A stretch of 63,224 nt of DNA, counting the filler, from Craspedostauros australis (Eukaryota), in the NCBI GenBank assembly GCA_030167865.1. It is 7 parts of 7 records of this genome, joined end to end, with 100 filler letters (N's around TTAATTAATTAA, not from the genome) between each part and the next. Parts side by side here need not be neighbours in the genome. Positions count along the whole stretch, not along the records: positions 12,057 to 21,470 come from JALAGF010006657.1; 6 more parts are not named here. The stretch is one strand, 5' to 3'. Position 1 is the first letter of the stretch, and every line of letters begins with the position of its first letter. A model generated the notes under the pieces. The model made no database searches and was not told the DNA's origin. It saw only the letters and a list, made by a program, of their open reading frames with translations. Both the position numbers and the translations under genes were made by a program. Below, in pieces: positions 10,312-60,065 of the stretch.

Positions 10312-11940
10312 CTAACCCAGCGCCGAATCCGGCAAACGTTGGCACTGCAAGTCCGACTTGCCTGTGTCCACCATGAACGCATGGATGTGGTTCAGCGCAC
10401 CCTCGAATGAAAAATGGCTTTCTCGATACGATAGAATTCGTTGCTCTGTTTCTTCGATGTTGGCCAATGTCCACGAGCCGTGTTGCGACGACGACGACGA
10501 TGTTGATGTTGGTGTTGACGAAAGCGAGGTCAACAGGACGTTGCGCATAAGATTCTCGACTTCATCATAACGCACTGCGATCGCCAACTGCTCCCGTTGC
10601 ATGAAGTCAAGGTACGGAACCCACGGGACATCGCGATACACATGGATCGGGATCAAGCCCATCTGCAGGGCCTCGATGAAATGGTACGACGTCCTCCCAA
10701 AGCCACGAGGGCACAGCGAGAAGCAAGATCTGGCCATGAACTCCCTCCACGCGTGGCCTTTGTAGTAGGAGAATATCCTGAGCTTGCTCTTGTTGATGGC
10801 ATTCGCCATTGGATCTTCATCGAGTGCCTGCAGGCCTTTGATGAGGTTCTCTCTCATCATCGCTGGGGCGTTGGTGTCGCCTCCGACGTACGTTGCGACG
10901 AAGGTGCGGTTTGTTGGGTGTTTGCGCAACGGGCGCGGCACTTCGCTGGGCAAACCGTAAGCTGGCGGCGGCGCGGTTGCTTGTGTGGATGATGAATGAG
11001 TGACCAGCGCATCTTCAGCCTGCTTGAGCAACGGAACAGGAACATGGCCGTATCCACCAGCCGACAACACGAGCACGTTGGGCATTGCAGCCATGTTGAG
11101 ATTGACCACGGTAGCCTTCAAGCCCTGGGCGTTCTGCACGAGCAGGATGTACGGCACATTCGGCCGCATTTTGCGTTGCAACAGCGGCCACAGCCGGCGG
11201 ACATCCGGCACATGCATATTGACGGAGAGTAGTTGCCTGTTGACGTAATGATCCGTCCAAGGCACCAGAATGGGAATGTACGGCCCGAATACTTCCTGCA
11301 GGCAGAAATGAGACGCTCCTGGCGACGCCGACACCTCGTCCATTCGCTTGTCGTACATGGATTCGAGATGAGTGATGAAATGATTCTCAATCCACGGTCC
11401 TGCGTAGCCTCCCCAATCGTGATACTTGTGCCCGCCATGCTGCGCCCATTGGGAAGCGATCATCCGAAGCTCGTTGAAGTGTGCATGAGCATCGGCGATG
11501 GGATACACCAGCGATTCGGATGTCATCCGCGGTGCGCTCTTCCTGAGACAGTCGAATGCCGGGCCGACCAGCGCGGAGATCCTGGATTGCACGTTGGGAT
11601 CCGCCGAGCAGCGACGGTCCAGATCCGGGGACCGATTCAAGGCCCTCTGCACCTTCTCCTTGTATCGCTGCAGCGGCGCATGACCCGCCTGCCTGGTTCT
11701 GATGCGGCTTCCTGGCCGGGCTTTTGCTGCGGCTGGGGCGCTTCGAGATGCCGCGCTCACGTTCATGACGATCGTTGGCATTGAATCGTCAAACGTCTTG
11801 TCCATGGCCACCAGCGGCAGATCCGATTTGAGGAGGATGCAGATCACGATGGAACCGATCCAGACGAACAGCAGAAGCGGCCGATAGTTCTGCCCATGCT
11901 GCTGCGTGGATCCGAGAGGTCTGGAGTTGGCAGTGGACAC
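10312..11940 (-). CDS. Exostosin-like GT47 glycosyltransferase, type II membrane protein; 5' end runs into a linker
   Basis: N-terminal TM (LLLFVWIGSIVICILL) and the GT47 signature FSLCPRGFGRTSYHFIEALQMGLIPI. Confidence 0.75.
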   Translation of the reverse strand: MSTANSRPLGSTQQHGQNYRPLLLFVWIGSIVICILLKSDLPLVAMDKTFDDSMPTIVMNVSAASRSAPAAAKARPGSRIRTRQAGHAPLQRYKEKVQRALNRSPDLDRRCSADPNVQSRISALVGPAFDCLRKSAPRMTSESLVYPIADAHAHFNELRMIASQWAQHGGHKYHDWGGYAGPWIENHFITHLESMYDKRMDEVSASPGASHFCLQEVFGPYIPILVPWTDHYVNRQLLSVNMHVPDVRRLWPLLQRKMRPNVPYILLVQNAQGLKATVVNLNMAAMPNVLVLSAGGYGHVPVPLLKQAEDALVTHSSSTQATAPPPAYGLPSEVPRPLRKHPTNRTFVATYVGGDTNAPAMMRENLIKGLQALDEDPMANAINKSKLRIFSYYKGHAWREFMARSCFSLCPRGFGRTSYHFIEALQMGLIPIHVYRDVPWVPYLDFMQREQLAIAVRYDEVENLMRNVLLTSLSSTPTSTSSSSSQHGSWTLANIEETEQRILSYRESHFSFEGALNHIHAFMVDTGKSDLQCQRLPDSALG

Positions 11941-11956: not shown

Positions 11957-12056
11957 NNNNNNNNNNNNNNNNNNNNNNNNNNNNNNNNNNNNNNNNNNNN
12001 TTAATTAATTAANNNNNNNNNNNNNNNNNNNNNNNNNNNNNNNNNNNNNNNNNNNN
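11957..12056. other. Artificial contig linker (same at 21471-21570, 30297-30395, 43056-43155, 47156-47255, 59235-59334)
   Basis: N44 + TTAATTAATTAA (stops in all six frames) + N44, repeated six times. Confidence 0.97.
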
Positions 12057-13472
12057 TGACGAGGTGCGGAAGGCGATGACGACGTCGGCTTGCCGACTGC
12101 GATCGGACTTCGTCTGCATGGCCAGGCGTAGCAGTACTGCGCCCGTGTTTGGTGGGAGGTCGTTGTTGCTGGCGTCTCGTGGGTCGAGAATGGTGACATC
12201 CGACCACGAGATACCGAAGGTTTCCGCCGCCCGTAGCCATCCCAGCCAGCCCATGAGGTTGATGACGCCCGCCATTGCTGCTGTCCGCCGCTGTTGTGGT
12301 GTGACTGCATGTTGGTATTGGTGGAGGAAGCTTCGGTCCATGAAGTGGACGTGACGAGAGAGCAAGGCGACCGAAGGTCGTGAGTCTTCGCCGAGTCGCG
12401 TGCGCATGCCCTGTGTCAGCATCGAATACCCGAGATGGTCCGTCGGGAGGCATGTGTCGACGGTGATGGGTCGCTGCTTGGCGTCGAGCATGGCGCGTTC
12501 GGGATGCGCGATGCACATATTCCACATGCCAAAGGCCGATGCCGCGCTGCGTAGCCCACGTACGGTGCTGAACTTGATGGCCTGGGCGTCGAGTGCGTTC
12601 TTGCAAGAGGGCGTCTGCGTGGCGTAGTGCTCCTGCACCCACATGATCGGGATCGTGTCGGAGCAGGGTGGCGATTGGATGTCGGGCGGTTGCATAGTCG
12701 GGATGCCATATTGCAGACCGAACTTGCGCAACACTTGAATCTTGCTGCTGTATGTGGTGAGTGTGCCGGCTGCCCAGTTGTGTGCCATGTCGATGATGCG
12801 CATGCGTTCTAGGCGGAGGAGGTGATAGTCTGTGGGGCTGGAGACCAGTTCCCGCTGGAGGTGCACTCGGACCGTGCATGCCTCACAGACAAAGAGACCC
12901 AGTATGCTGAGGTTGGGTGGCAGCACCAGACCTTTATGATTGCGGAGGCGCGTGCGGAAGGGAGGTCCGACTCGACAGCACAGTTTGTGGTATCGGGTGT
13001 AACATGGCTGGTAGGAGATACCGCCGTGAGTGAACCCAATGTCGGCGAAGTGACACTGGTGCGCGGCGGTGCGCCGATTGATACTCCTAGCACAGCCCGT
13101 GCAAACGCTCGGCGATCCGTTGGTGATGCCGCCGATTCCGGGAGCGGGGAGCAAAGTCCAATCTGGGAGGCGTGAGGGAACGAGTGTGTGGAGAGACGCG
13201 GAGGAGGAGGTTAGGAATGTTGAGAGGCGAAGAAGAAGAGAGAGAGAGACAGGTCGTCGTTGGTGAACACCCCAACCCGGATGAGATGACGTGAGAGTCG
13301 GACGAAAGTGCGTTGGAGCACTCTGGGGACGAGGATGACGAATCCGGTATCCAATGGTTGCTCCGCCCAGCATCCCAGCAGGAAGTAGATCAGCTGATAG
13401 GCCAGTTCTGGCGGCGGCGCCCACAGGGTGATGCAGTTCATGCAGCCCTCTGGGCTCCATGGGCGGTCCCAT
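12057..13472 (-). CDS. Tyrosine recombinase with N-terminal PHD-like zinc finger (C-terminus truncated)
   Basis: GWLGWLRAAETFGISWSDV (catalytic Arg box) and QTKSDR (catalytic Lys), preceded by WAAGTLTTYSSK and KFSTVRGLRSA (core-binding domain). Cys/His pattern CTGC..C..C...YHKLC..FVCEAC. Confidence 0.8.
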
Positions 13473-16400
13473 CGACGTAACAGTACAGTCGTGAGAGTGT
13501 CAGGGAAGGCGAGGGACGCGATCCGGGAGACATGCCGTTGTTGGAGTGGTGCCGGGGCCAGACATGCGGATAGGATCTGCGATGAGGTCGGTCTCTGATG
13601 GGCCGCATTAATCCAGATCCCACGGCTGAGTCCGTCCGTCCCTTCTGTGATGATGGCGGTGCCGGGGATGTGGATGACTTGGAGGTGGCACGACAGGTGA
13701 AGCTCGAGCTGCTTGATCTTTCGAACCATCTTGTGCAGTTCCGGTGATGTGGAAGTGCCTCCATCGACAACANNNNNNNNNNNNNNNNNNNNNNNNNNNN
13801 NNNNNNNNNNNNNNNNNNNNNNTGATGTGGAAGTGCCTCCATCGACAACACAGTAGGTGCACATGTTGTCGGTGAAGTAGAAGAAGGTGGCGCCGAAGAC
13901 GTCCATGGCAGATGCTGGGTTGTTGGCGACCTGCTGCAGAGTGCTGAGTAGGGTGCGTAGCTCCTTCCAGTTGGATGAGTGGCGTGTTGCCACGAGGGAG
14001 GACCATGTGCCCATCCACATACATGAGGGTTGACTGGGGAAGAGGATGGTGCCACCGGTGCCTGTGCCACTGCCGTCTCCAAAGCTGCTGACGAGAATGT
14101 CGGTGCGGGTCGCGCGACCGCTTCGTGCGGTATCGTTGGTGAGCGCTGATCGCCACCATTGGAGGTCTTGTGTGACTGCGAGGGTGATAGCTGTGTAGCT
14201 GAAGTATGGTAGATCAGGTTGGTCCCATTCGCCGGGATGGACGAGTGTGTAGAGAGCCCGCAGGTAGTTGCGACCGAGGTATGATGGTGTGGCCTCGGCT
14301 ACGCTCTCCAACATGCCCGCCAGAACCGCGAGGGCGAGTCGGGAGACTCTTGTAGGTGTGGCTTCGATGTAGTCCAACACCGCGATGATCTTATCCCGTT
14401 TCAGCGGAGGAATGCGTAGGCGTGGTGTGCTCGTGGTGTCGAAAATCAGTCCAGTGTACTTGACGACCTGGCCGGGTGGCGTGAGCTTGCCAGGGTGACA
14501 GAGTAGGCCACAGTCCACCGACAGGTCGAGGAAGGCCGACAATGCCGCTGCGGTCTTGTGGTGTGTGGGTCCATGGATGATGAAGTCATCACAGTGGGCC
14601 CACACGAGAGCGGCGGGCGATCCGTCGGGTCCGATGGCCACAAGTCCCTGTCCTCTGGTGTGATCATAGTCCAGGCCTTGGTCGAATGCGGTCCACCACA
14701 TATTAGATCGTTGCGTGCCTTGGTATATCGGAGAATGCTCGCGTAGTCGTCGGAGGAAGGCAGTTCCTAGCCTGCATGCGATAGCCGGTGATTGGCTAGA
14801 TCCCATGGGCAGCCCAGCATACTGGTACATTTTTCCCGAAATCGGATGTTGGATGCCGAGAAATCGCCTTTCGTCAGGACGCGTTCGAAATTGGTAAAAA
14901 TACTTCGAAGCGTCCACCACCGCCGACCATCCACCGTGATACATTTGTTTCAAAATGTCGCGGCTTTTTCGAAAAATGGTCGGGTCGGCCCCAATAAACT
15001 CGTTGGTGCGGTTTTCTCGCATGTTGGCGATGATGCGCCATTGATCGGGCTGCATGGGTTTCGGTAGAGCAAAGAGGGGAGCATTGACGACCACCGGATG
15101 GAGTGGGTCTTGCGGCTCGACGACGCCGAGGCTGAGTAGCTCGTCAACGAAGTCCGCTGCCACCTGTTGTTGTTCAGCGGTCATGTCGGTGTTGTCATGG
15201 TATCCTGATTCCGGAGTGCCCAGAAAATTCATCGGACTCCCTTCTCGTAGATGGTCCCAGTGTTGCTGAGGGAATTCCCACCAGAGCACTCGTAGCTGTT
15301 TGGGGTCGGGGTGTGTGTCCGTGTAGTTGGTGCGGTGAACGCGTAGGTCGTCGAGTCCATCCTCGAGTAGCGAAGCGGATCGTTCTCCGTACCGTGTACA
15401 AGCCTGCCGCAGGTTGCCCACACGGTGCCGATGCCAATCGCTGCCGGGAGCGAGGTCGGGTGGGGACCATTGATATTGGGAGTCGCCGTTGTTGTCCTCG
15501 GTGATGGTTGGCTGGGTCTGTCTTCGTCGTCTTCGTCGTCGTCGTCGTCGTCGTTCTGTCGTTGGTGTCGTAGGTTGGGAGTGTTCGGAGTGCCGATGTA
15601 CTTGGCGGGCCAAGTCCATCAGCGGTGTGGAGAGGTACTCCAGCAGATGTTGTGACGGAGTGTGGAAAAGCGCTCGCCATTTCGCCTGCTTCAGCACCTC
15701 TCCGGGGAGCGAGCTGCCCAGGGCTTTCCCTAACTCGTCTGGAAAGAGGCGTCGGACGCCTCTATCCGTCTGAATAAGGGCAAGCCCGTCCATTGGCATT
15801 GCAGATGTTGCGCTGTCAACGACCGACTGGGCGTTGCTCTTCGTTATATAGCATCGTCGAGGAACTCCGCAATGACGAAGACAGTTCGCCATGCTTCGCT
15901 CGGATGCAGGTTGGAGGTCTGGCCAGTCGATGCCAGATGCCGTCCACGTTGTTGCCGCCCTCACCACCACCGTATAAATCACCGATACCGCTCCACCCAT
16001 TCGTTGATTGGGGAGGGCCTTGATTTGTGTTCCATAACCGAAGTCCATCCAGAGCTTGCACTCCCGTTTGGAGGCTGCATGTTGTATCCATCCCAGGTGG
16101 GGTCCGGTCCATATCTCGATGATCAGCCGAGGTCGTAGGTTGACTTGGCAGTGGAGGACCCAACTACGCCATTCTGTATTCTGGACCCCATGGGCGACCA
16201 GAAAATCCACCGGAAGCTCGTTTAGAACCCGGTGAGACACTCTTGCCGTCGACCCAAGGAATTGGGTCGAGTCCGGGTACGTCCGAAACGTGTGGGGCAA
16301 GCCGTCGTCATGTGTGCAAAGGACATGCTCGAAAGCGGGCCAGATGCTGCTGGTCATGTGGAGACCGAAGTTCAGTGTTGCGTAGCGCAATGAACAGATA

Positions 16401-16576
16401 GAGGACGTGGGGAGTTGTTTCGTGGATAATGCAACAATATCTGCTAAGTTAGAGCTTAGTAGTATGTCGCTCGGGCCGTCTGGATTGTCGATGTGCGTGT
16501 GTGTGGTGTCTGGGATGGTCGGTGGTATCGGTGTTTGTTGGTTGGCGTTGAGGTGGGCACGAGTTGTGGGCAGCAC
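13211..16576 (-). CDS. Pol: C5-MTase-like N-domain + reverse transcriptase + DIRS-type RNase H + degenerate methyltransferase-like C-terminus
   Basis: RT: VVDASKYFYQF, YAGLPMGSSQSP, WAHCDDF (14585-14596). RNase H: FGDGSG, SSNWKEL, FTDN, HIPG...TDGLSR. C-terminal WAPPPE...VILVP resembles the DIRS NPP/lvvP region. The gap at 13773-13822 is an assembly overlap. Confidence 0.88.
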   Translation of the reverse strand: MLPTTRAHLNANQQTPIPPTIPDTTHTHIDNPDGPSDILLSSNLADIVALSTKQLPTSSICSLRYATLNFGLHMTSSIWPAFEHVLCTHDDGLPHTFRTYPDSTQFLGSTARVSHRVLNELPVDFLVAHGVQNTEWRSWVLHCQVNLRPRLIIEIWTGPHLGWIQHAASKRECKLWMDFGYGTQIKALPNQRMGGAVSVIYTVVVRAATTWTASGIDWPDLQPASERSMANCLRHCGVPRRCYITKSNAQSVVDSATSAMPMDGLALIQTDRGVRRLFPDELGKALGSSLPGEVLKQAKWRALFHTPSQHLLEYLSTPLMDLARQVHRHSEHSQPTTPTTERRRRRRRRRRRQTQPTITEDNNGDSQYQWSPPDLAPGSDWHRHRVGNLRQACTRYGERSASLLEDGLDDLRVHRTNYTDTHPDPKQLRVLWWEFPQQHWDHLREGSPMNFLGTPESGYHDNTDMTAEQQQVAADFVDELLSLGVVEPQDPLHPVVVNAPLFALPKPMQPDQWRIIANMRENRTNEFIGADPTIFRKSRDILKQMYHGGWSAVVDASKYFYQFRTRPDERRFLGIQHPISGKMYQYAGLPMGSSQSPAIACRLGTAFLRRLREHSPIYQGTQRSNMWWTAFDQGLDYDHTRGQGLVAIGPDGSPAALVWAHCDDFIIHGPTHHKTAAALSAFLDLSVDCGLLCHPGKLTPPGQVVKYTGLIFDTTSTPRLRIPPLKRDKIIAVLDYIEATPTRVSRLALAVLAGMLESVAEATPSYLGRNYLRALYTLVHPGEWDQPDLPYFSYTAITLAVTQDLQWWRSALTNDTARSGRATRTDILVSSFGDGSGTGTGGTILFPSQPSCMWMGTWSSLVATRHSSNWKELRTLLSTLQQVANNPASAMDVFGATFFYFTDNMCTYCVVDGGTSTSXXXXXXXXXXXXXXXXXVVDGGTSTSPELHKMVRKIKQLELHLSCHLQVIHIPGTAIITEGTDGLSRGIWINAAHQRPTSSQILSACLAPAPLQQRHVSRIASLAFPDTLTTVLLRRWDRPWSPEGCMNCITLWAPPPELAYQLIYFLLGCWAEQPLDTGFVILVPRVLQRTFVRLSRHLIRVGVFTNDDLSLSLFFFASQHS

Positions 16577-16606
16577 AGAAAGGAGAGAGACAAAGCAAAC
16601 ACAGGG

Positions 16607-17533
16607 TTAGGTATCATCCTCTTCTCCGCCTCCGCGCTTCGCGATTGCTTCCTGCAGGATGCGAGTGATAACGTCGGCGGCCTTCTCGCCTTGGTTCACA
16701 CATTTCGCGACCTGTTTGGCTTTCGCCATCGCCACCTTCTTCTTGAAGAGATACCCGAATGGGCATCCGCTGTCGCGGATCTCATGGACCTTGCTGGATC
16801 CTCCGCAGTGCTTGCACTTCTTCCGACCTGTTTCGGTTGGAGCAGTGTCAGTGTCATCCTTCGTTGCCGAGGAGGGACCGAGGGTGCCGATTGCGCGCTG
16901 CTGAAATTTCTCCAGGACCTTCAGGTTGCACCAACCGCCTCTTGCTCCTTCGCGTACGATGATGTACGTGCGAAAGATCATGAGATTGCGGGAGGACGCG
17001 AAGTTGCGTGCGTCAAAGAGAGCCTTGGCGTAGTGCTCGAGGTATACCTCGGCAGAGTCCTCCCATCCGTTGGCTGTCTTGAAGGCCTCCTCTTGGAGTT
17101 TGAGGAGGAGTTCGTGACAGTACATCAAGAACAGCTTGAGGATGGGTCGCCGTCCTCCGCCTTGCTGGTAGAGCGTGATTTGCTCATCAGTGTAGCAGCC
17201 GTGGCGGAGAATGTGACCCACATTGTTGAGATAGCGGGTCATCACGTTGTCGCAGATGCTGTTGAAGTCACCCGCGAGTTCGCTGAGGTCTTCAGAGGTC
17301 TTGATGCGGCCGAGAGCGTGGCGAGTCTTGGTGCGCCAGTTGGAGTCGGTGGCGATGAGACCGGCAGATCGAGCGGTTTGGTTGCGGATGTCTCCGAAGG
17401 CGGAGGCGAGTTCTTCAATGGATGTGCGTTCATCAGTGACCTTACCTGGTTGGCTGGTGACGTCGATGGCGGCTTTGGCGAGTTCAGTCTGGATCTCTTG
17501 GCTGGCGTGTGGCGGGGCGAGGTGTTTGAGCAT
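16607..17533 (-). CDS. Gag-like ORF, C-terminal part with zinc-knuckle-like motif; in frame with the upstream ORF
   Basis: KCKHCGGSSKVHEIRDSGCPF; separated from the upstream ORF only by TGA CGC. Confidence 0.6.
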   Translation of the reverse strand: MLKHLAPPHASQEIQTELAKAAIDVTSQPGKVTDERTSIEELASAFGDIRNQTARSAGLIATDSNWRTKTRHALGRIKTSEDLSELAGDFNSICDNVMTRYLNNVGHILRHGCYTDEQITLYQQGGGRRPILKLFLMYCHELLLKLQEEAFKTANGWEDSAEVYLEHYAKALFDARNFASSRNLMIFRTYIIVREGARGGWCNLKVLEKFQQRAIGTLGPSSATKDDTDTAPTETGRKKCKHCGGSSKVHEIRDSGCPFGYLFKKKVAMAKAKQVAKCVNQGEKAADVITRILQEAIAKRGGGEEDDT

Positions 17534-17536
17534 GCG

Positions 17537-18898
17537 TCATTCGTTGTCGATGGCTTCGCCGAAGATCTGTTTCTTATCGCCCTTGGACGAGTCTTCGCCC
17601 AGGAACTGTTCGATACCCATGCTGGTGGAGCCAGACGGGGCCCGCTCTGGGAGAGGGGCTGTCGCCGCTTGGGACTCGGCGGGTGTGTTTCCTGGGTATG
17701 TTGCTCCTGCCGGGTGTGGGCGGTCGTGTGACATCGGCTGGCTGTAGATGGGTGCGGTTGTCGTTGAGGCACGGAGGTAGGCATCGGCTTCAGCGAAGGA
17801 AGCACACCGAACAACTCGGGCGGTGCTTCCGGTGCCTGCTTGAGCGATGGCCTCAGCCGCCGAGGTGTACACCCCGGGGCGTCGTCCATCGATCGCCACA
17901 TACCATTCGGTGTCCGTGGTTGGGGCAGGCGCAGGAGCGAGACTCGGGGAGGGACGGCCATGTTGGAGCAGTTGCGTGATTTGCGCCTGCTGATTCGCCA
18001 GTGCCCGCAACATTGCTTGCCTGGTCTCCTCTGACTTGCGTTGGTGGAGCTCCATCGCTTCACGGTTGAGGGATGCTTGATGGCGCACCACATGCATGAG
18101 TTCGTCGGCTGCGGTGGTGGCCAGAGCAGGAGGAGAGTAGTGTGTTCCGTGCTGGGAGGAGAGGGCTGGACGGGAGACGACCGGGACGGGGCGCATCAAT
18201 GGTGCCGGGGGTGTGCGACCGGATGCCACTGGTTGGGTGGTCGGTGGCGGGCCAGCGGGGTTGGTCTTGATGCGGACGGGTGGCGTCGGTTGCACATCGA
18301 TGCCCGGTTGTACGTCGCTGCCGGGTCGTCCTGCCGGCTTGGTGTCGAGGTCGAATCCAACCACTCCGACGCTTTTGGAGTCGCTATCGTTGCGAGCAGC
18401 GGCATCCGTGATATCCATCTTGCCGACAGCTTCGAGATCGCGGAGCGCGGCGGCACGAGTAGAGTCGTATGCGGCGCGGCTCTGGTGGCTGCTCTCGATG
18501 AGATCGCGTCGGGGTGCTCCGCCAAGCGTGGTTGTGTCGAGGCATTGGTACACTCCCGCGAGTCCACGTCGGTCAGGGTTGCGGCGAAGGGCATGGTGGT
18601 TGCTGCGGCGGCACTCGCTGGCCAAGTTAGCGCAGAGTAGAGTGTGGCCGTCCTCCGACTTAGAGGAGAGGCGGACCAGACAGATGCGGTCGTCTGCCAT
18701 GACGTGTCCAATGGCCATTCCGATCCCGACTTGGTCGAGGAGAGTGTCGCTGCCCATGTCACCAGAGCGGGCGGATCCGCTGGCTACCGGGGATACAGTC
18801 TCGACTGTGATCCCGGGCCCGGAATCAGCCGGAGGCATGCTGGCGAAAGCGGAGGCTTCAGACGCAAGAAGCGAGGAGAGATTGGGTGGGTCGGTCAT
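17537..18898 (-). CDS. Gag-like ORF, N-terminal part: Cys/His motif plus RNase H1 N-terminal (viroplasmin-like) hybrid-binding domain
   Basis: CLVRL...CANLASECRRSNHH. WYVAIDGRRPGVYTSAAEA...CASFAEADAYL fits the yYaV..Gr.pGvy..w.e....F.t..eA..yl pattern. Confidence 0.65.
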   Translation of the reverse strand: MTDPPNLSSLLASEASAFASMPPADSGPGITVETVSPVASGSARSGDMGSDTLLDQVGIGMAIGHVMADDRICLVRLSSKSEDGHTLLCANLASECRRSNHHALRRNPDRRGLAGVYQCLDTTTLGGAPRRDLIESSHQSRAAYDSTRAAALRDLEAVGKMDITDAAARNDSDSKSVGVVGFDLDTKPAGRPGSDVQPGIDVQPTPPVRIKTNPAGPPPTTQPVASGRTPPAPLMRPVPVVSRPALSSQHGTHYSPPALATTAADELMHVVRHQASLNREAMELHQRKSEETRQAMLRALANQQAQITQLLQHGRPSPSLAPAPAPTTDTEWYVAIDGRRPGVYTSAAEAIAQAGTGSTARVVRCASFAEADAYLRASTTTAPIYSQPMSHDRPHPAGATYPGNTPAESQAATAPLPERAPSGSTSMGIEQFLGEDSSKGDKKQIFGEAIDNE

Positions 18899-20417: not shown

Positions 20418-21699
20418 GGTTTACAGTAACCTGTAACCTTAGGGTAACAACCGTGTTATTTCAAAAAGTGACATTTCAACTCAATCGAAGACTGGTGATT
20501 ACAGCTACTGATCTGTATCCATGCACTGGCATGTTGTATTAGCGCACGCTAAATCTCTAACAATAGCGACACCCGTCGACCAATCAGAAATATCCACTTT
20601 TCTTACCTTTTCCGTTCCGAACGGAAATTTTGGTCGAAAATCCGTTGTGTCAAATTTGTGTCGCATTTCGCGTCGCAGGAATCGTTTTCCCGTCAAACAC
20701 AGTTCCAAAATGTCGTGGAAATTGATTTCTTGCCAAGATGAACCAATCTGCCCAATCAGGACAGACTTGGATCTTGGGTGTGACATGTGCGAATCTTACC
20801 NNNNNNNNNNNNNNNNNNNNNNNNNGTGCGAATCTTACCAAGACCTTCTCAAGTGAATACGATCAATCGTGTGATCGTACTACTAGCAACATCGTGAGAA
20901 GATGTAATTCACAACACGGGCTATCGCGATGTTTTGTTCATTGACCTTTTGCACCTCATCTTCACGCAGTAACACACACATTTGCCGTGTTGTCTCCGTG
21001 TTAATTTCACTTGCAATTTGCATGAGACCTGTCATGTCTCTCTCATGCTCACAGTTCTCAAGAANNNNNNNNNNNNNNNNNNNNNNNNNNNNNNNNNNNN
21101 NNNNNNNNNNNNNNNNNNNNNNNNNNNNNNNNNNNNNNNNNNNNNNNNNNNNNNNNNNNNNNNNNNNNNNNNNNNNNNNNNNNNNNNNNNNNNNNNNNNN
21201 NNNNNNNNNNNNNNNNNNNNNNNNNNNNNNNNNNNNNNNNNNNNNNNTGACAATCCATCCATCCTTCATCCCTCGTCCATCCACGAGCGATCCCTTCACC
21301 TTCCATCACGTGACGACGTGATTTCGGCTTTCCTTCGGCTTTCTCGCATTCGCAGAACGCCCTCCTTTCGGTTCCCCTGCTGAGTCCGGGCCTTCCCACT
21401 CAGCCATCCAAGACTTCCTGCAGCACCCTCCCGCACCAGAAGACGATTCAGTCAGTGCACTCCAGCCTCANNNNNNNNNNNNNNNNNNNNNNNNNNNNNN
21501 NNNNNNNNNNNNNNTTAATTAATTAANNNNNNNNNNNNNNNNNNNNNNNNNNNNNNNNNNNNNNNNNNNNGCAGGCCAAACATCCGAAACTGAACTAGTG
21601 AGTTGAGACTACTGAATTAAAAGGAGTATTCTATAGCCTATATTACTGTATTACAATGTGGTAAATTGGAGCATGGTGCTCTCTTGACTGCTTCATCTG

Positions 21700-22570
21700 G
21701 GCTGCAGCACTGCTGGCGCCATTGTTGTGTTGAAGCTGCATGTGGTGTTGCTGTCTTCTATTGCTGCTGCCTGCCACTCGTGTTGCTAAGGTTTCTGTGG
21801 CTGGGTTGCTGCAGTCTTCCACTTGTGCCATTGTCTGCTCTTGTTGCTGCATCCACTGCTGCTCCTATTTGTGCTCTTGCTTGTGTGTTCTGTTTGCGTC
21901 GCTGCTTGTACTCCTGCTCGCACTCCTGCTGTGTTGCTGCTGGCGCTCTTGCTTGTGTTTCTGTTTGTGTTGTTGCTTGTGTTTCTGTTCGTGCTCTTGC
22001 TTGTGCTCCTGCTTATGTCACTGCTCGGACTCCTGCTCGCACTCCTGCTTGCACTCCTGCGTGTGTTGCTGCATGTGTCGCTGCTCGTGCTTGTGCTCCT
22101 GCTCGCACTCCTGCTTGTGTTGCTGCTTGTGTTTCTGGTTGTGTCGCTGCTCGTACTCCTGCTCACGCTCCTGTGTGTGTTGCTGCTTGTGTTTCTGTTT
22201 GTGTTGCTGCGTGCGTCGCTGCTCGTGCTTCTGCTCGCACTCCTGCTTTGTTTCTGTTTGTATTACTGCTCGTGTTGCTGCTTGTGTCCTTGCTCGTGCT
22301 CGTGCTCGTGCTCTCGCTCCTGATCATACTCTTGCTTGTGTCGCTGCTTGTTTCACTGCTTGCGTTGCTGCATGTGTCGCTGCTCGTGCTTGTGCTCCTG
22401 CTCGCACTCCTGCTTGTGTTGCTGCTTGTGTTTCTGGTTGTGTTGCTGCTTGTTCACCTGCTCGCGCTCCTGCTGTGTTTGTGTTGCAGCTCATGCTCTT
22501 GCTTGTGTTGTGTTTGTGTTTGTGTTGCTGCTTGTGCTCCAGCTCGTGCTCTTGCATGTGTTGCTGGTGC
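21700..22570. repeat. Degenerate 6/12-nt minisatellite (TGCTCG/TGCTTG/TGTTGC) with an internal ~85-bp duplication
   Basis: Extreme T/G/C skew; 22059-22144 recurs at 22361-22443. Confidence 0.8.
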
Positions 22571-47155: not shown

Positions 47156-48034
47156 NNNNNNNNNNNNNNNNNNNNNNNNNNNNNNNNNNNNNNNNNNNNT
47201 TAATTAATTAANNNNNNNNNNNNNNNNNNNNNNNNNNNNNNNNNNNNNNNNNNNNACTACTACTACTACACGAACACTACCAGGGCGAGCACAAGCATGG
47301 AACACAACAGCGAGTGCGCATGGCATTGGCGAGGAAAGTTGTGAGATGGAGCGAAANNNNNNNNNNNNNNNNNNNNNNNNNNNNNNNNNNNNNNNNNNNN
47401 NNNNNNNNNNNNNNNNNNNNNNNNNNNNNNNNNNNNNNNNNNNNNNNNNNNNNNNNNNNNNNNGAGATCATGTCGCAGATGCTAACGTGTATTTAACGTG
47501 TACCAAACGAACGACTCCTTCCGGAGCAGGTCCGTGACTGATCACCCGGCGATAAATACTTCGGAACAGCATGGAACCTTCTGAAAAACAACCAGGAGTT
47601 TCATGGGGTCGACTCATAGGACTTTAGCATATCTTTGACTGTACATAAAACTTAAAATAGGATCTAACTTAAAAATCGATCGGTTAATTATTTATATGGA
47701 GATTACGAGGATTACGAATATGTGCTTGGTTTGGATCTACTAGATAAAAGTTATTGAGTCCCATGACAAAGTGCAGGTCGACTCACTGATCGGGCTCTTA
47801 ACGTTAATGCAATGAAACTCTGGAGCGGTATGTCGTGTCTTTGCGCTCTGCATCCCAGTAGGTCGTATTGTGTTTGTGATAGCTCTGGAGCACGATGATA
47901 GGCAGATGTACAATACAACATGAAGCAATGCAAGTGCTCATCGACACAGCACATACCACATGAAGAGTGCAATAGCGGAATTGTAGTGTTGTTTATCGTG
48001 TTGTTGTGCTGTACATGTTGGAATCGTGCGCAAA

Positions 48035-56101: not shown

Positions 56102-57475
56102 TCATGGATTCCCCTTGCAGACGTTGTCGCCGATACACTCTCCATCGCCAATCTCGTCTGAGGTCGTCTCGCAGGCACTCGTGCCCACGCAAGAATTGTC
56201 ACCGATTTCCGTGGCGCTGCTGGTGGAGAAGCACGCACGGTACCCAAGGCACGACTCTTCGCCCACGTCGGCGCTATTGGAACGACAAGCATTGTCGCCG
56301 ATGCAGGAGTACGGCTTGATCAGACCAAAGTTCGAGTTGCACGCATCTGCGCCCTTGCAGGCACCATCCGTGATCACACCCAAGCTCTCTTCGCACGCAG
56401 ATGGTCCCACACAGGAGTTGTCACCAACTGCGCGATAGCTGAAGGTGCAGGCTCTCTCGCCAAGGCAAGATCCTGTCCCAACACTCTCGTAGTTGTAGAC
56501 ACAAGCGCTGATCCCAATGCAGGATCTGGTATGGATGTCGCCTTTGTTGCTCGCACAAGCGTCTTCGCCAATGCAGGAGCCCTTGGCGATGTGTCCAATG
56601 TTTCTATCACAAGCTCTCTCGCCGTTGCAGGAATTGTTCTCGACGTATCCGACGGAGCTGGCGCATGCGTCCTCACCGTTGCAGGAAACGAATCCAAAAC
56701 CGATGTTGGTGGTTGCATCTGTTCCCAACATGCAAGCTCCATCTCCGTTGCAGGAGTTGGCACAGACTCGCACATGTCGGTGGCTGGCCCAGCCGCATGC
56801 ATCGCGGGAGGCACCATCTGGTGTGACGCAGCAGTTGGCATTGGCCGATGCACAGGCTGCGGTGACGCCAGCAGCCGTTCCGGTGAAACAAAGCTCTGAA
56901 GCCTTGACCGATTTCGATGCCTTTCCCAAATCGGGAGACTTTGCCGACTTACCGCTTTCTCCCGAAGCGCCAGACTTGGAATCTTTTGCCAGCTTGCTTC
57001 TTGCGGATTTCGAAGACTTGAGATCGCGCGTTGCAGCCTCATCTTGGGCATCCGGATGGGAAGCATCGGCACCGAACGCCACGGCAGTGGAATCCACAAC
57101 CGCGCTGCTTCGCAAACGACCGGCGTCAACCAGTTGAGAAGGGTCCTGTCCATCAAACGATGATGACGACGCCTGCGGTTGACTGACAGGATTTTGAGCT
57201 TGCCTACCTTGCGTCACGAATGATTCAAAGTTGATCGCGTTCGATCGCTCCCATGGTTTCACATCATCGTGCTTGTGCACGTGGTTGGTGATATCCGCAC
57301 TTTCTTTGGTGAATCCGTGTATGAGCTTCTGACGGGATGCATGCACATCGTCAACGTCGGCGATGTGATCATCAGCTGCGACGGAGTCTTCCAAGAGAGC
57401 ATCGACGCCATGAAAGATGAGGCTGTTTGCCACAACCAAAGCGATGATGTCGTTCTTCATGCTCAAGATAGTCAT
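56102..57475 (-). CDS. Secreted protein with RXL site, KxxK cluster and 18-aa Cys repeats (457 aa)
   Basis: Signal peptide; RDL followed by KSSK...KLAKDSK...KSAK...KASKSVK; about twelve SCxGxxAC repeats. Confidence 0.8.
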   Translation of the reverse strand: MTILSMKNDIIALVVANSLIFHGVDALLEDSVAADDHIADVDDVHASRQKLIHGFTKESADITNHVHKHDDVKPWERSNAINFESFVTQGRQAQNPVSQPQASSSSFDGQDPSQLVDAGRLRSSAVVDSTAVAFGADASHPDAQDEAATRDLKSSKSARSKLAKDSKSGASGESGKSAKSPDLGKASKSVKASELCFTGTAAGVTAACASANANCCVTPDGASRDACGWASHRHVRVCANSCNGDGACMLGTDATTNIGFGFVSCNGEDACASSVGYVENNSCNGERACDRNIGHIAKGSCIGEDACASNKGDIHTRSCIGISACVYNYESVGTGSCLGERACTFSYRAVGDNSCVGPSACEESLGVITDGACKGADACNSNFGLIKPYSCIGDNACRSNSADVGEESCLGYRACFSTSSATEIGDNSCVGTSACETTSDEIGDGECIGDNVCKGNP

Positions 57476-59234: not shown

Positions 59235-59798
59235 NNNNNNNNNNNNNNNNNNNNNNNNNNNNNNNNNNNNNNNNNNNNTTAATTAATTAANNNNNNNNNN
59301 NNNNNNNNNNNNNNNNNNNNNNNNNNNNNNNNNNTATTAATAGTCAATCCAACCAGTCAACGGAGATGCGCGATGCCACGCGCGTGCACGGATCGCTTCA
59401 TCCACGAATCGGTGAAAGCCAAATAGCATTTCGCGACTGTCGCAACATGAACATCACCAAGGAATTGAACCAAAATGCTCCGCAGAGAAGATTCAGTTCC
59501 AGTTGTATTGGAGTGCTATGCCCACTGATCGAACCTCTTCAACGTCGGAGCAACAAAAGCTGATCTGGCCATTGGGTGACGATCGATCCTCGCTCCATCC
59601 TGTCATAAAATCAATCAATCAATCATCAGTTCAGACAACCACACCAGCAGCCACAACGACAACGATCTGTTTGCCCGCTCGTACACGTGCCCAAGATAAC
59701 CGAATACAAATAATAACGGACAACATTCACACCACTTCACGTGCCATTTGACCAACACCACCATCACTAACAACAGCAACAACAACACAATCGTAGTC

Positions 59799-60065
59799 AT
59801 GGTTTCCTTCGGAAAAGCAGCTCTCGTGCTATCCCTGATGGGCACAGTCTCTCAGTTCGCTTCGGCTGGAGGTACGCAGAACACAAGCTAAATAGTTCTA
59901 TATCCCTCTTCATTGGCACCTGCTCTGTTGTTGTTGTGTTGCTCTCGCTCGAGCAAGTCAATTCGTCGATGACCTCATCGGTGCATATTGCCGCCATTCC
60001 AATGATCGAGCAGCAACTGCAGTGGCAGCAGCACGAGTAACAACAACAGCACCAACAGTTCTTCA
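59799..60065 (+). pseudogene. 5' stump of a secreted-protein gene, cut at an internal telomeric repeat
   Basis: MVSFGKAALVLSLMGTVSQFASAG, donor G|GTACG at 59872, then S/N-rich coding-like sequence ending at TTAGGGTTAGGG. Confidence 0.45.

Follow-up and report, generated by a model that had tools for sequence, protein, structure and literature searches.

The stretch of DNA studied here (the window, 63,224 nucleotides from Craspedostauros australis, assembly GCA_030167865.1) contains one copy of a retrotransposon whose polymerase protein (Pol) carries, upstream of its reverse transcriptase (RT), a domain predicted to fold as a cytosine-C5 methyltransferase and lacking the catalytic cysteine of these enzymes. 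The copy lies on contig JALAGF010006657.1 (12057-21470, 9.4 kb), which has an artificial joiner at either end (11957-12056 and 21471-21570). All features of the element are on the minus strand, and positions are those of the window. ORF1 occupies the gag-like position (16607..18898, ~763 codons); it is followed by the open reading frame (ORF) of Pol (13211..16576, 1121 codons as assembled, from the ORF listing and its translation) and by a third, tyrosine-recombinase-like ORF (12057..13472), which the end of the contig truncates at 12057. Within Pol, the methyltransferase-like domain (residues ~60-335, 15572..16399) precedes the RT core (residues 531-710, 14447..14986), an RNase H-like region (13619..14083) and a C-terminal domain of ~170 residues (13211..13600). 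An earlier note on this sequence had listed five peptides in the order of the C5 methyltransferase motifs and placed them upstream of the RT; all five occur in the minus-strand translation of Pol, in that order and inside 15600-16400. We read the domain as probably a pseudo-enzyme that selection has retained in a large family of DIRS-order elements and that is likely to bind nucleic acid.

Fold and motifs of the methyltransferase-like domain

The domain was modelled with AlphaFold2 from a 69-row alignment (A1, the query and 68 relatives), and the model reached a mean predicted local distance difference test score (pLDDT) of 86.3 and a predicted template-modelling score (pTM) of 0.76; a model from the single sequence was unusable (pLDDT 33.6). 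A Foldseek search of PDB returned 237 matches at E <= 0.001; among those listed, all chains are C5 methyltransferases, the best being M.HhaI (E 7.6e-12, TM 0.60), with Dnmt2, M.MpeI, M.HaeIII and DNMT3A/B (including complexes of DNMT3B3) also present. VIA-align superposed model residues 2-278 on residues 5-327 of M.HhaI, i.e., on both lobes, with a Z score of 21.8 and a root-mean-square deviation of 2.9 A over 259 residues, followed by M.MpeI (Z 21.1), HaeIII (19.8), Dnmt2 (19.6), DNMT1 (18.6) and DIM2 (18.3). Look-alikes of the domain in the ESM Atlas (0.87-0.89), which pointed to recombinase clusters, were under the meaningful level and were disregarded.

The sequence evidence (the profile of the domain and Pfam in the relatives) independently agrees with this structural result. 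A profile of the domain alone (alignment A2, the query and 85 short metagenome fragments) retrieved M.HhaI from PDB (E 2.1e-4 to 1.4e-2); the match covers motifs VI-VIII, and a second, weak one lies at motifs IX-X. The only further rows for this profile were M.HaeIII and an L-asparaginase (E 0.21 apiece). At E <= 0.1 the Pfam family DNA_methylase (PF00145) was matched by 11 of 129 related fragments, always at profile positions ~100-197 and in three cases at or above the cut-off; among the full-length relatives, 2 of 44 matched at this threshold (best E 0.0083). The Pol of the window copy had no PF00145 match in Pfam at E <= 1. The predicted structure and these matches together show a complete two-lobe C5-cytosine methyltransferase fold, homologous to the C5 methyltransferases, and a resemblance much too strong to be due to chance; a methyltransferase fold is what the earlier note had supposed.

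Conservation was counted over 69 family sequences, and the register was taken from a hidden Markov model (HMM) alignment to M.HhaI; both this alignment and the order of secondary-structure elements in the model agree with the earlier assignment of the peptides to motifs IV, VI, VII/VIII, IX and X. At the position of motif IV the family has PVDLLVV-E/D-x-G and the window copy PVDFLVAHG (Pol 122-130, 16187..16213; the loop reads VDFLVAHGVQN). The Pro-Cys nucleophile, noted before as missing from the window copy, is absent family-wide, and a Cys anywhere in the loop was found in 8/69 sequences, at scattered, non-homologous places. The Glu-Asn-Val (ENV) of motif VI is replaced by E-S/A/T-W (E in 68/69 sequences, W in 69/69, N and V substituted) within a family consensus RPxVVxE-S-W, which is RPRLIIEIW in the window copy (Pol 148-156, 16109..16135). 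In the motif VII/VIII-like stretch (FGYG...VVVR, Pol 179-206, 15959..16042) the family reads G-G-A-I-x-Q-x-R-L against G-I-P-Q-K-R-E-R-I in HhaI; only the last Arg of the Gln-x-Arg-x-Arg of motif VIII is kept (R149 in model numbering, corresponding to Pol 201, aligned with HhaI R165, 61/69), with I/V in place of Q161 and Q in place of R163 (Gln in 66/69). In the window copy this Q and R are V and Y, and in its nearest relatives the R165-like Arg is Y or W. On the cofactor side, strand beta-1 and the motif I-like loop (RYATLNFGLH, 16358..16387; family Y-G-T-I-D/G-G/C-G-L-E) show a degenerate FxGxG, with a Cys at motif I position 18 in 24/69 sequences, and strand beta-2 ends in R or G, with no conserved acid where an acid of HhaI binds the cofactor (motif II). 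Of the three signatures that relatives of the element might have kept, Pro-Cys is gone, ENV may survive as its Glu, and the degenerate FxGxG has two conserved glycines.

The target-recognition-domain-like lobe (15761..15952) carries the family motifs RPMSNLL (ERSMANCL in the window copy, 15863-15901) and DPMP (SAMPMDG, 15785-15805). The motif IX-like GVRRLFPDELGKALG (Pol 273-287, 15716..15760), which was recovered as a weak second HMM domain against TRKLHPRECARVMGYPD of HhaI, follows a family pattern GxRRLxxxExxxGLG in which R223, E229 and G235 are invariant in the 69 sequences, and a motif X-like helix, ALFHTPSQHLLEYLS (Pol 302-316, 15629..15673), is placed by both the HMM alignment and the model.

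Because the cysteine nucleophile of motif IV and most of the cofactor-binding signatures are lost, the domain is regarded as a pseudo-enzyme. From the residues at these positions we infer that cytosine-C5 methyl transfer would be impossible; cofactor binding appears doubtful, and the DNA-facing cleft seems to be partly preserved.

The family, selection and the rest of the element

The RT/RNase H part of Pol led to 252 related metagenome proteins at E <= 0.001, most of them ~1100 residues long and with at most 51% identity over that part. Among six relatives whose clusters were consulted, one is labelled as a bacterial MAG, which we take for a eukaryotic contig under a wrong label. A word-based homologue search with Pol 50-335 gave no match at E <= 0.001, and the relatives were reached only via the RT part and by an exhaustive search of 1.8 billion representatives, which returned 154 clusters (50% identity) at E <= 0.001. 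When Pol 1-400 was compared by phmmer with the best 120 of the 252 relatives, most were matched, down to E 1.9e-41; the match to the domain covered at least 200 residues in 88 of them, was partial in 17 and was lacking in 15. The last are truncated gene calls, since all are 672-827 residues long and begin at or after motif X, and the domain is present in every full-length relative.

Selection was estimated as the ratio of nonsynonymous to synonymous substitution rates (dN/dS), by the Nei-Gojobori method on a codon alignment of 29 Pol ORFs from 80 metagenome loci (found with a further alignment, A3) together with the window copy. In seven close pairs, dN/dS of the domain was 0.07-0.21, compared with 0.05-0.11 in the RT (where the synonymous divergence of the RT was unsaturated). 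The domain is therefore under purifying selection, somewhat weaker than that on the RT. A different predicted fold, or a region unconserved among related elements, would have spoken against the original proposal; we found a methyltransferase fold and a conserved domain.

The remainder of Pol is that of a retrotransposon. The RT core, with the motifs YFYQF and CDDF, matched Pfam RVT_1 at E 4.1e-5, under Pfam's cut-off; RVT_1 was matched in 44/44 relatives (best 8.2e-13), and the profile also matched retroviral and Ty3 RTs in PDB. Between the methyltransferase-like domain and the RT the linker contains a run of ten arginine codons (15524..15553), and pLDDT is below 50 at model residues 301-311. 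The region with the family-invariant motifs GDGSGTG, SNWKEL, FYFTDN and GTDGLSRG is one that we take to be RNase H, from its D-E-D-D pattern rather than from a database match. It contains a gap of 50 N (13773-13822) flanked on either side by the same 28 nt (within 13745-13850), so that VVDGGTSTS is duplicated in the translation; the gap is an assembly artefact, because relatives have no insertion at that point, and is probably an overlap that the scaffolder left unmerged. The C-terminal domain (ITLWAPPPELA in the window copy; W-x-P-P-P-E nearly invariant) had no Pfam match in the query or in 44 relatives and no sequence match in PDB. It occupies the place that a Dam-like adenine-methyltransferase domain has in other DIRS elements, and by this analogy it is conceivable that it is a second degenerate methyltransferase.

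ORF1 matched no Pfam family, and a Pfam search of ORF1 in the relatives found no relevant family. A single in-frame TGA (17537-17539) cuts it into ORF453 and ORF308, and the ORF308 part matches inside one unbroken ORF1 of 640-812 residues at related metagenome loci. ORF1 and Pol are in the same frame, with one TAA (16607-16609) between them, as at locus L023; other relatives place the two in different frames, so no shared read-through design is evident. A weak Pfam match to Cauli_VI, the N-terminal hybrid-binding domain of RNase H1 (E 0.23, 17777-17905 on the minus strand, ORF453 residues 332-374), was noted, and WYVAIDGRRPGVYTS...FAEADAYL in ORF453 resembles that domain by eye; a search of ORF1 from four relatives (E <= 0.05) did not recover the domain.

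The third ORF opens with a Cys/His-rich region, after which a tyrosine-recombinase-like domain starts (WLGWLRAAE, TKSDRSR); the window copy has only the first half of this domain, because the ORF breaks off after the K of the catalytic pattern, at the contig end. Full-length ORFs of relatives have WLR..TK(S/T)..HxYRRG..EHGRW..Y in 9/9 aligned sequences, which corresponds to R-K-HxxR-H/W-Y, presumably the tyrosine-recombinase pattern. The window copy had no Pfam match here, PF00589 failed in 4/4 recombinase ORFs of relatives, and a recombinase profile found nothing in PDB below E 0.15; the look-alike cluster of the recombinase in the Atlas (score 0.96) has PF00589 in 18% of its members. The start of the ORF (12870-13110, minus strand) has an invariant C-x2-C ... 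C ... C-x4-H-x2-C ... C-x2-C in alignment A5, which may recall a cross-brace zinc finger (PHD/RING-like) and has no database support.

Gene order was the same (ORF1 with an ORF308-like part; Pol with methyltransferase-like, RT, RNase H and C-terminal parts; third ORF) in 12/19 metagenome loci of at least 6 kb, and in the remaining 7/19 no ORF308-like or methyltransferase-like match was detectable. Pfam found no aspartic protease or DDE integrase, either in the window copy (four ORFs, E <= 1) or in 44 relatives (E <= 0.1). Because of this gene order, the recombinase residue pattern in relatives and the lack of protease and DDE integrase matches, we file the element under the tyrosine-recombinase (DIRS-order) retrotransposons; its terminal repeats would be out of sight, since the contig ends inside the recombinase ORF. 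Four metagenome contigs of 8.6-10.3 kb (L007, L015, L019 and L079) have an exact overlap of 111 or 127 nt between their two ends, and L009 has 127-nt pieces in an A..B..A.B layout (1-127/8010-8136; 7224-7350/8154-8280). These patterns fit split direct repeats, tandem copies or circular forms collapsed by the assembler, and may be assembly effects.

The window itself is a composite. Six identical joiners, N44-TTAATTAATTAA-N44, were found at 11957-12056, 21471-21570, 30297-30396, 43056-43155, 47156-47255 and 59235-59334, where TTAATTAATTAA provides stop codons in every frame. The window thus consists of at least 7 separate contigs, and there is no genomic linkage between genes on different sides of a joiner. 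The element (12057-18898) has a CpG observed/expected ratio of 1.01, against 0.64-0.69 for the contigs at 21571-30296 and 59335-63224. Long unbroken ORFs on other contigs (3-1544, 10312-11940, 25954-28950, 38641-43053 and 56102-57475) encode a Copia-type RT (RVT_2), an exostosin GT47-like protein, an ankyrin/BTB protein (998 residues), an AAA_16/STAND NTPase (1470 residues) and a DUF7640 protein; the best named relatives of the exostosin-like glycosyltransferase are from diatoms, a pelagophyte and a dinoflagellate (35-38% identity).

Possible roles of the domain

Besides the fold and its homology, the analysis shows the loss of the cysteine, the presence of the domain throughout the family, purifying selection and the gene order of the element. 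We give a probability of roughly three in four to the reading that the N-terminal domain of Pol is a selected pseudo-enzyme of the C5-methyltransferase type in a large DIRS-order family, probably one that binds nucleic acid. It would serve as a nucleic-acid-binding module of Pol, gripping DNA or complementary DNA (cDNA), possibly with a flipped cytosine, through the retained cleft, which the motif VI Glu, motifs IX and X, the recognition lobe and, in most members, the R165-aligned Arg would form. Its purpose might be the tethering of cDNA, the choice of targets or interference with host methylation; the earlier note had suggested a DNA-binding or decoy module.

Several points weigh against this reading. 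The motif I glycines are kept (G14 in 58/59 and G19 in 54/60 of the sequences with a residue there), so that some cofactor binding is still conceivable. The conserved Glu of motif VI (E102 in model numbering, Pol E154) stands opposite M118 of HhaI in the ungapped HMM alignment, one position before E119, and the equivalence of the two glutamates needs a shift of one residue. The fold is that of a predicted model, whose superposition was taken as a whole, and both the deadness of the domain and its binding of nucleic acid are read from residues and fold. Of 396 pairs, the 40 least diverged in the RT were inspected for dN/dS, and one of these 40 is an identical pair; in deeper pairs dN/dS was 0.29-0.68, with synonymous sites saturated. 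Of the conserved columns, the window copy differs from the family at 12/49 in the domain, among them the motif VIII Q and R, versus 15/180 in the RT, and, with its ORF1 stopped and conserved residues changed, it may be decaying.

Its fraction of departures is the highest in the set, and its nearest relatives are similar (17-23%). Because of the in-frame stop in ORF1 and the change of several family-conserved residues, the window copy is probably defective and non-autonomous.

On a more far-reaching view, which we hold to be unlikely, the domain would be no relic and would serve the transposon as an epigenetic tool, namely a base-flipping reader of cytosine or CpG without chemistry. Such a reader might occupy CpGs on new cDNA or on the target, so that host cytosine methyltransferases would be blocked there, or redirected in the manner of DNMT3L; alternatively, it might guide the recombinase towards chromatin in a particular state of methylation, perhaps in concert with the finger-like Cys/His-rich region of the third ORF. 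If this were true, many “DIRS elements without DNMT” of marine protists would carry a hidden methylation-related module, and the capture of DNMTs would be older and wider than the two events described from dinoflagellates.

Among the rival explanations, an unlikely one is a common origin with SymbioDIRS-Dnmt3 (de Mendoza et al. 2018, PMC5890265). These are DIRS-like elements of Symbiodinium that have a Dnmt3 domain in Pol and were discovered by means of PF00145 and PF00589; the present family would then derive from the same capture event and would have decayed later. The common design, a DNMT fold in a DIRS-like Pol with a separate recombinase ORF and an RT poorly seen by Pfam, would suit such a descent, as would the graded “degree of DNMT conservation” that the covered parts of the same paper report among DIRS-like elements. 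However, PF00145 fails for the query and for 42/44 full-length relatives, and PF00589 for 4/4 recombinase ORFs. Two further points speak weakly against it: no DNMT3 chain occurs among the 50 VIA-align entries ranked by Z, the best of which are enzymes with a large recognition lobe, and the window has 0 matches to the dinoflagellate spliced-leader relic with up to 3 mismatches.

A slightly poorer candidate is a structural remnant, serving the folding, dimerisation or spacing of Pol without nucleic-acid contacts of its own. The lost catalytic residues, the faster evolution of the domain (~1.3 to 2.3 times that of the RT) and the W or Y that replaces the R165-like Arg in the sub-clade of the window copy are all consistent with a remnant of this kind, but conservation is strongest at the DNA-facing motifs (VI, VIII, IX and the start of the recognition lobe) and not only in the core, and the dN/dS of the close pairs is low for a mere spacer.

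To our knowledge every C5 methyltransferase uses the cysteine of motif IV. A still active methyltransferase (of DNA, cDNA or RNA) with a non-canonical nucleophile or mechanism would agree with the complete two-lobe fold, the conserved motif VI Glu and R165-aligned Arg, the two conserved motif I glycines, the Cys at position 18 of that motif, the strong purifying selection and the methylation of CG in yeast by the SymbioDIRS-Dnmt3 domain (reported in the covered parts of PMC5890265), but it is very improbable, as the motif IV loop has no conserved cysteine, the motif I Cys occurs in only about one third of the members, the ribose-binding acid of the cofactor site is missing, ENV has other residues in place of N and V, and QxRxR is altered at two positions.

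As a pseudo-enzyme, the domain offers a natural case for asking what a methyltransferase fold gives to a transposon besides methylation, and the size of the family (252 proteins; 154 clusters) provides many sequences for experiments.

Comparison with known systems

With M.HhaI and the bacterial type II C5 methyltransferases the domain shares the motif order IV, VI, VIII, IX, X and a hydrophobic “xxLL” after motif VIII. It differs from M.HhaI in its low identity (10-12%), in the lack of the catalytic Cys, of the N and V of ENV and of equivalents of Q161 and R163, and in being fused to an RT. DNMT3L and DNMT3B3 are catalytically inactive DNMT3 paralogues that act as host regulatory subunits by pairing with active DNMT3. 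By analogy, the domain would be like them in being a C5-methyltransferase fold without catalytic residues that is retained non-catalytically; they lack most of the recognition lobe, whereas it has a full second lobe and belongs to the polymerase of a transposon.

Pfam searches have brought to light retrotransposons with active cytosine methyltransferases in dinoflagellates, a charophyte and a few other protists. Those of dinoflagellates and charophytes, mentioned in the earlier note, are described in the covered parts of PMC5890265, and part of a 2025 paper (PMC12344493) reports DNMT3 members in Copia and DIRS elements. The same fold can sit hidden in Pol, unseen by Pfam, and be kept by selection after the loss of the catalytic cysteine, so the number of methyltransferase captures may be underestimated where tyrosine-recombinase elements are surveyed as “DNMT-less”. 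We found no published description of a cysteine-less DNMT fold in a tyrosine-recombinase retrotransposon, the supplementary key-residue alignment and the architecture drawings of PMC5890265 lying outside the material covered.

Adenine-methyltransferase-carrying elements and DNMT4-like “EpiLTRs” are reported in a preprint of which, again, parts were covered (Fernandez-Moreno et al. 2026, 10.64898/2026.05.21.726589), and in both, as here, the Pol of a retrotransposon has a DNA-methyltransferase domain. In the DAM-carrying DIRS elements, however, this is an adenine methyltransferase with a preserved catalytic pocket, located after the RNase H, whereas the pseudo-enzyme domain of the present family stands before the RT; no Dam match was found by Pfam in 44 relatives. 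In the EpiLTRs the DNMTs are DNMT4-like, look active and lie at the 3' end of pol.

The closest resemblance is to SymbioDIRS-Dnmt3, which likewise combines a C5-methyltransferase fold with RT and RNase H in its Pol and has a separate ORF for a tyrosine recombinase (a putative one here), an RT that is poorly matched by Pfam and a DNMT domain under purifying selection. According to the covered parts of PMC5890265, the SymbioDIRS-Dnmt3 domain keeps the key catalytic positions and methylates CG de novo in yeast, and “DIRS elements lacking DNMTs” also exist. In contrast to that recognisable (PF00145) and catalytic domain, the one described here has no Pro-Cys and is unseen by Pfam, and the recombinase that goes with it is unseen by PF00589. 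The hosts of SymbioDIRS-Dnmt3 are Symbiodiniaceae, whereas the relatives of the window family come from metagenome contigs; by description, the two are elements of one general design that differ in their methyltransferase domain.

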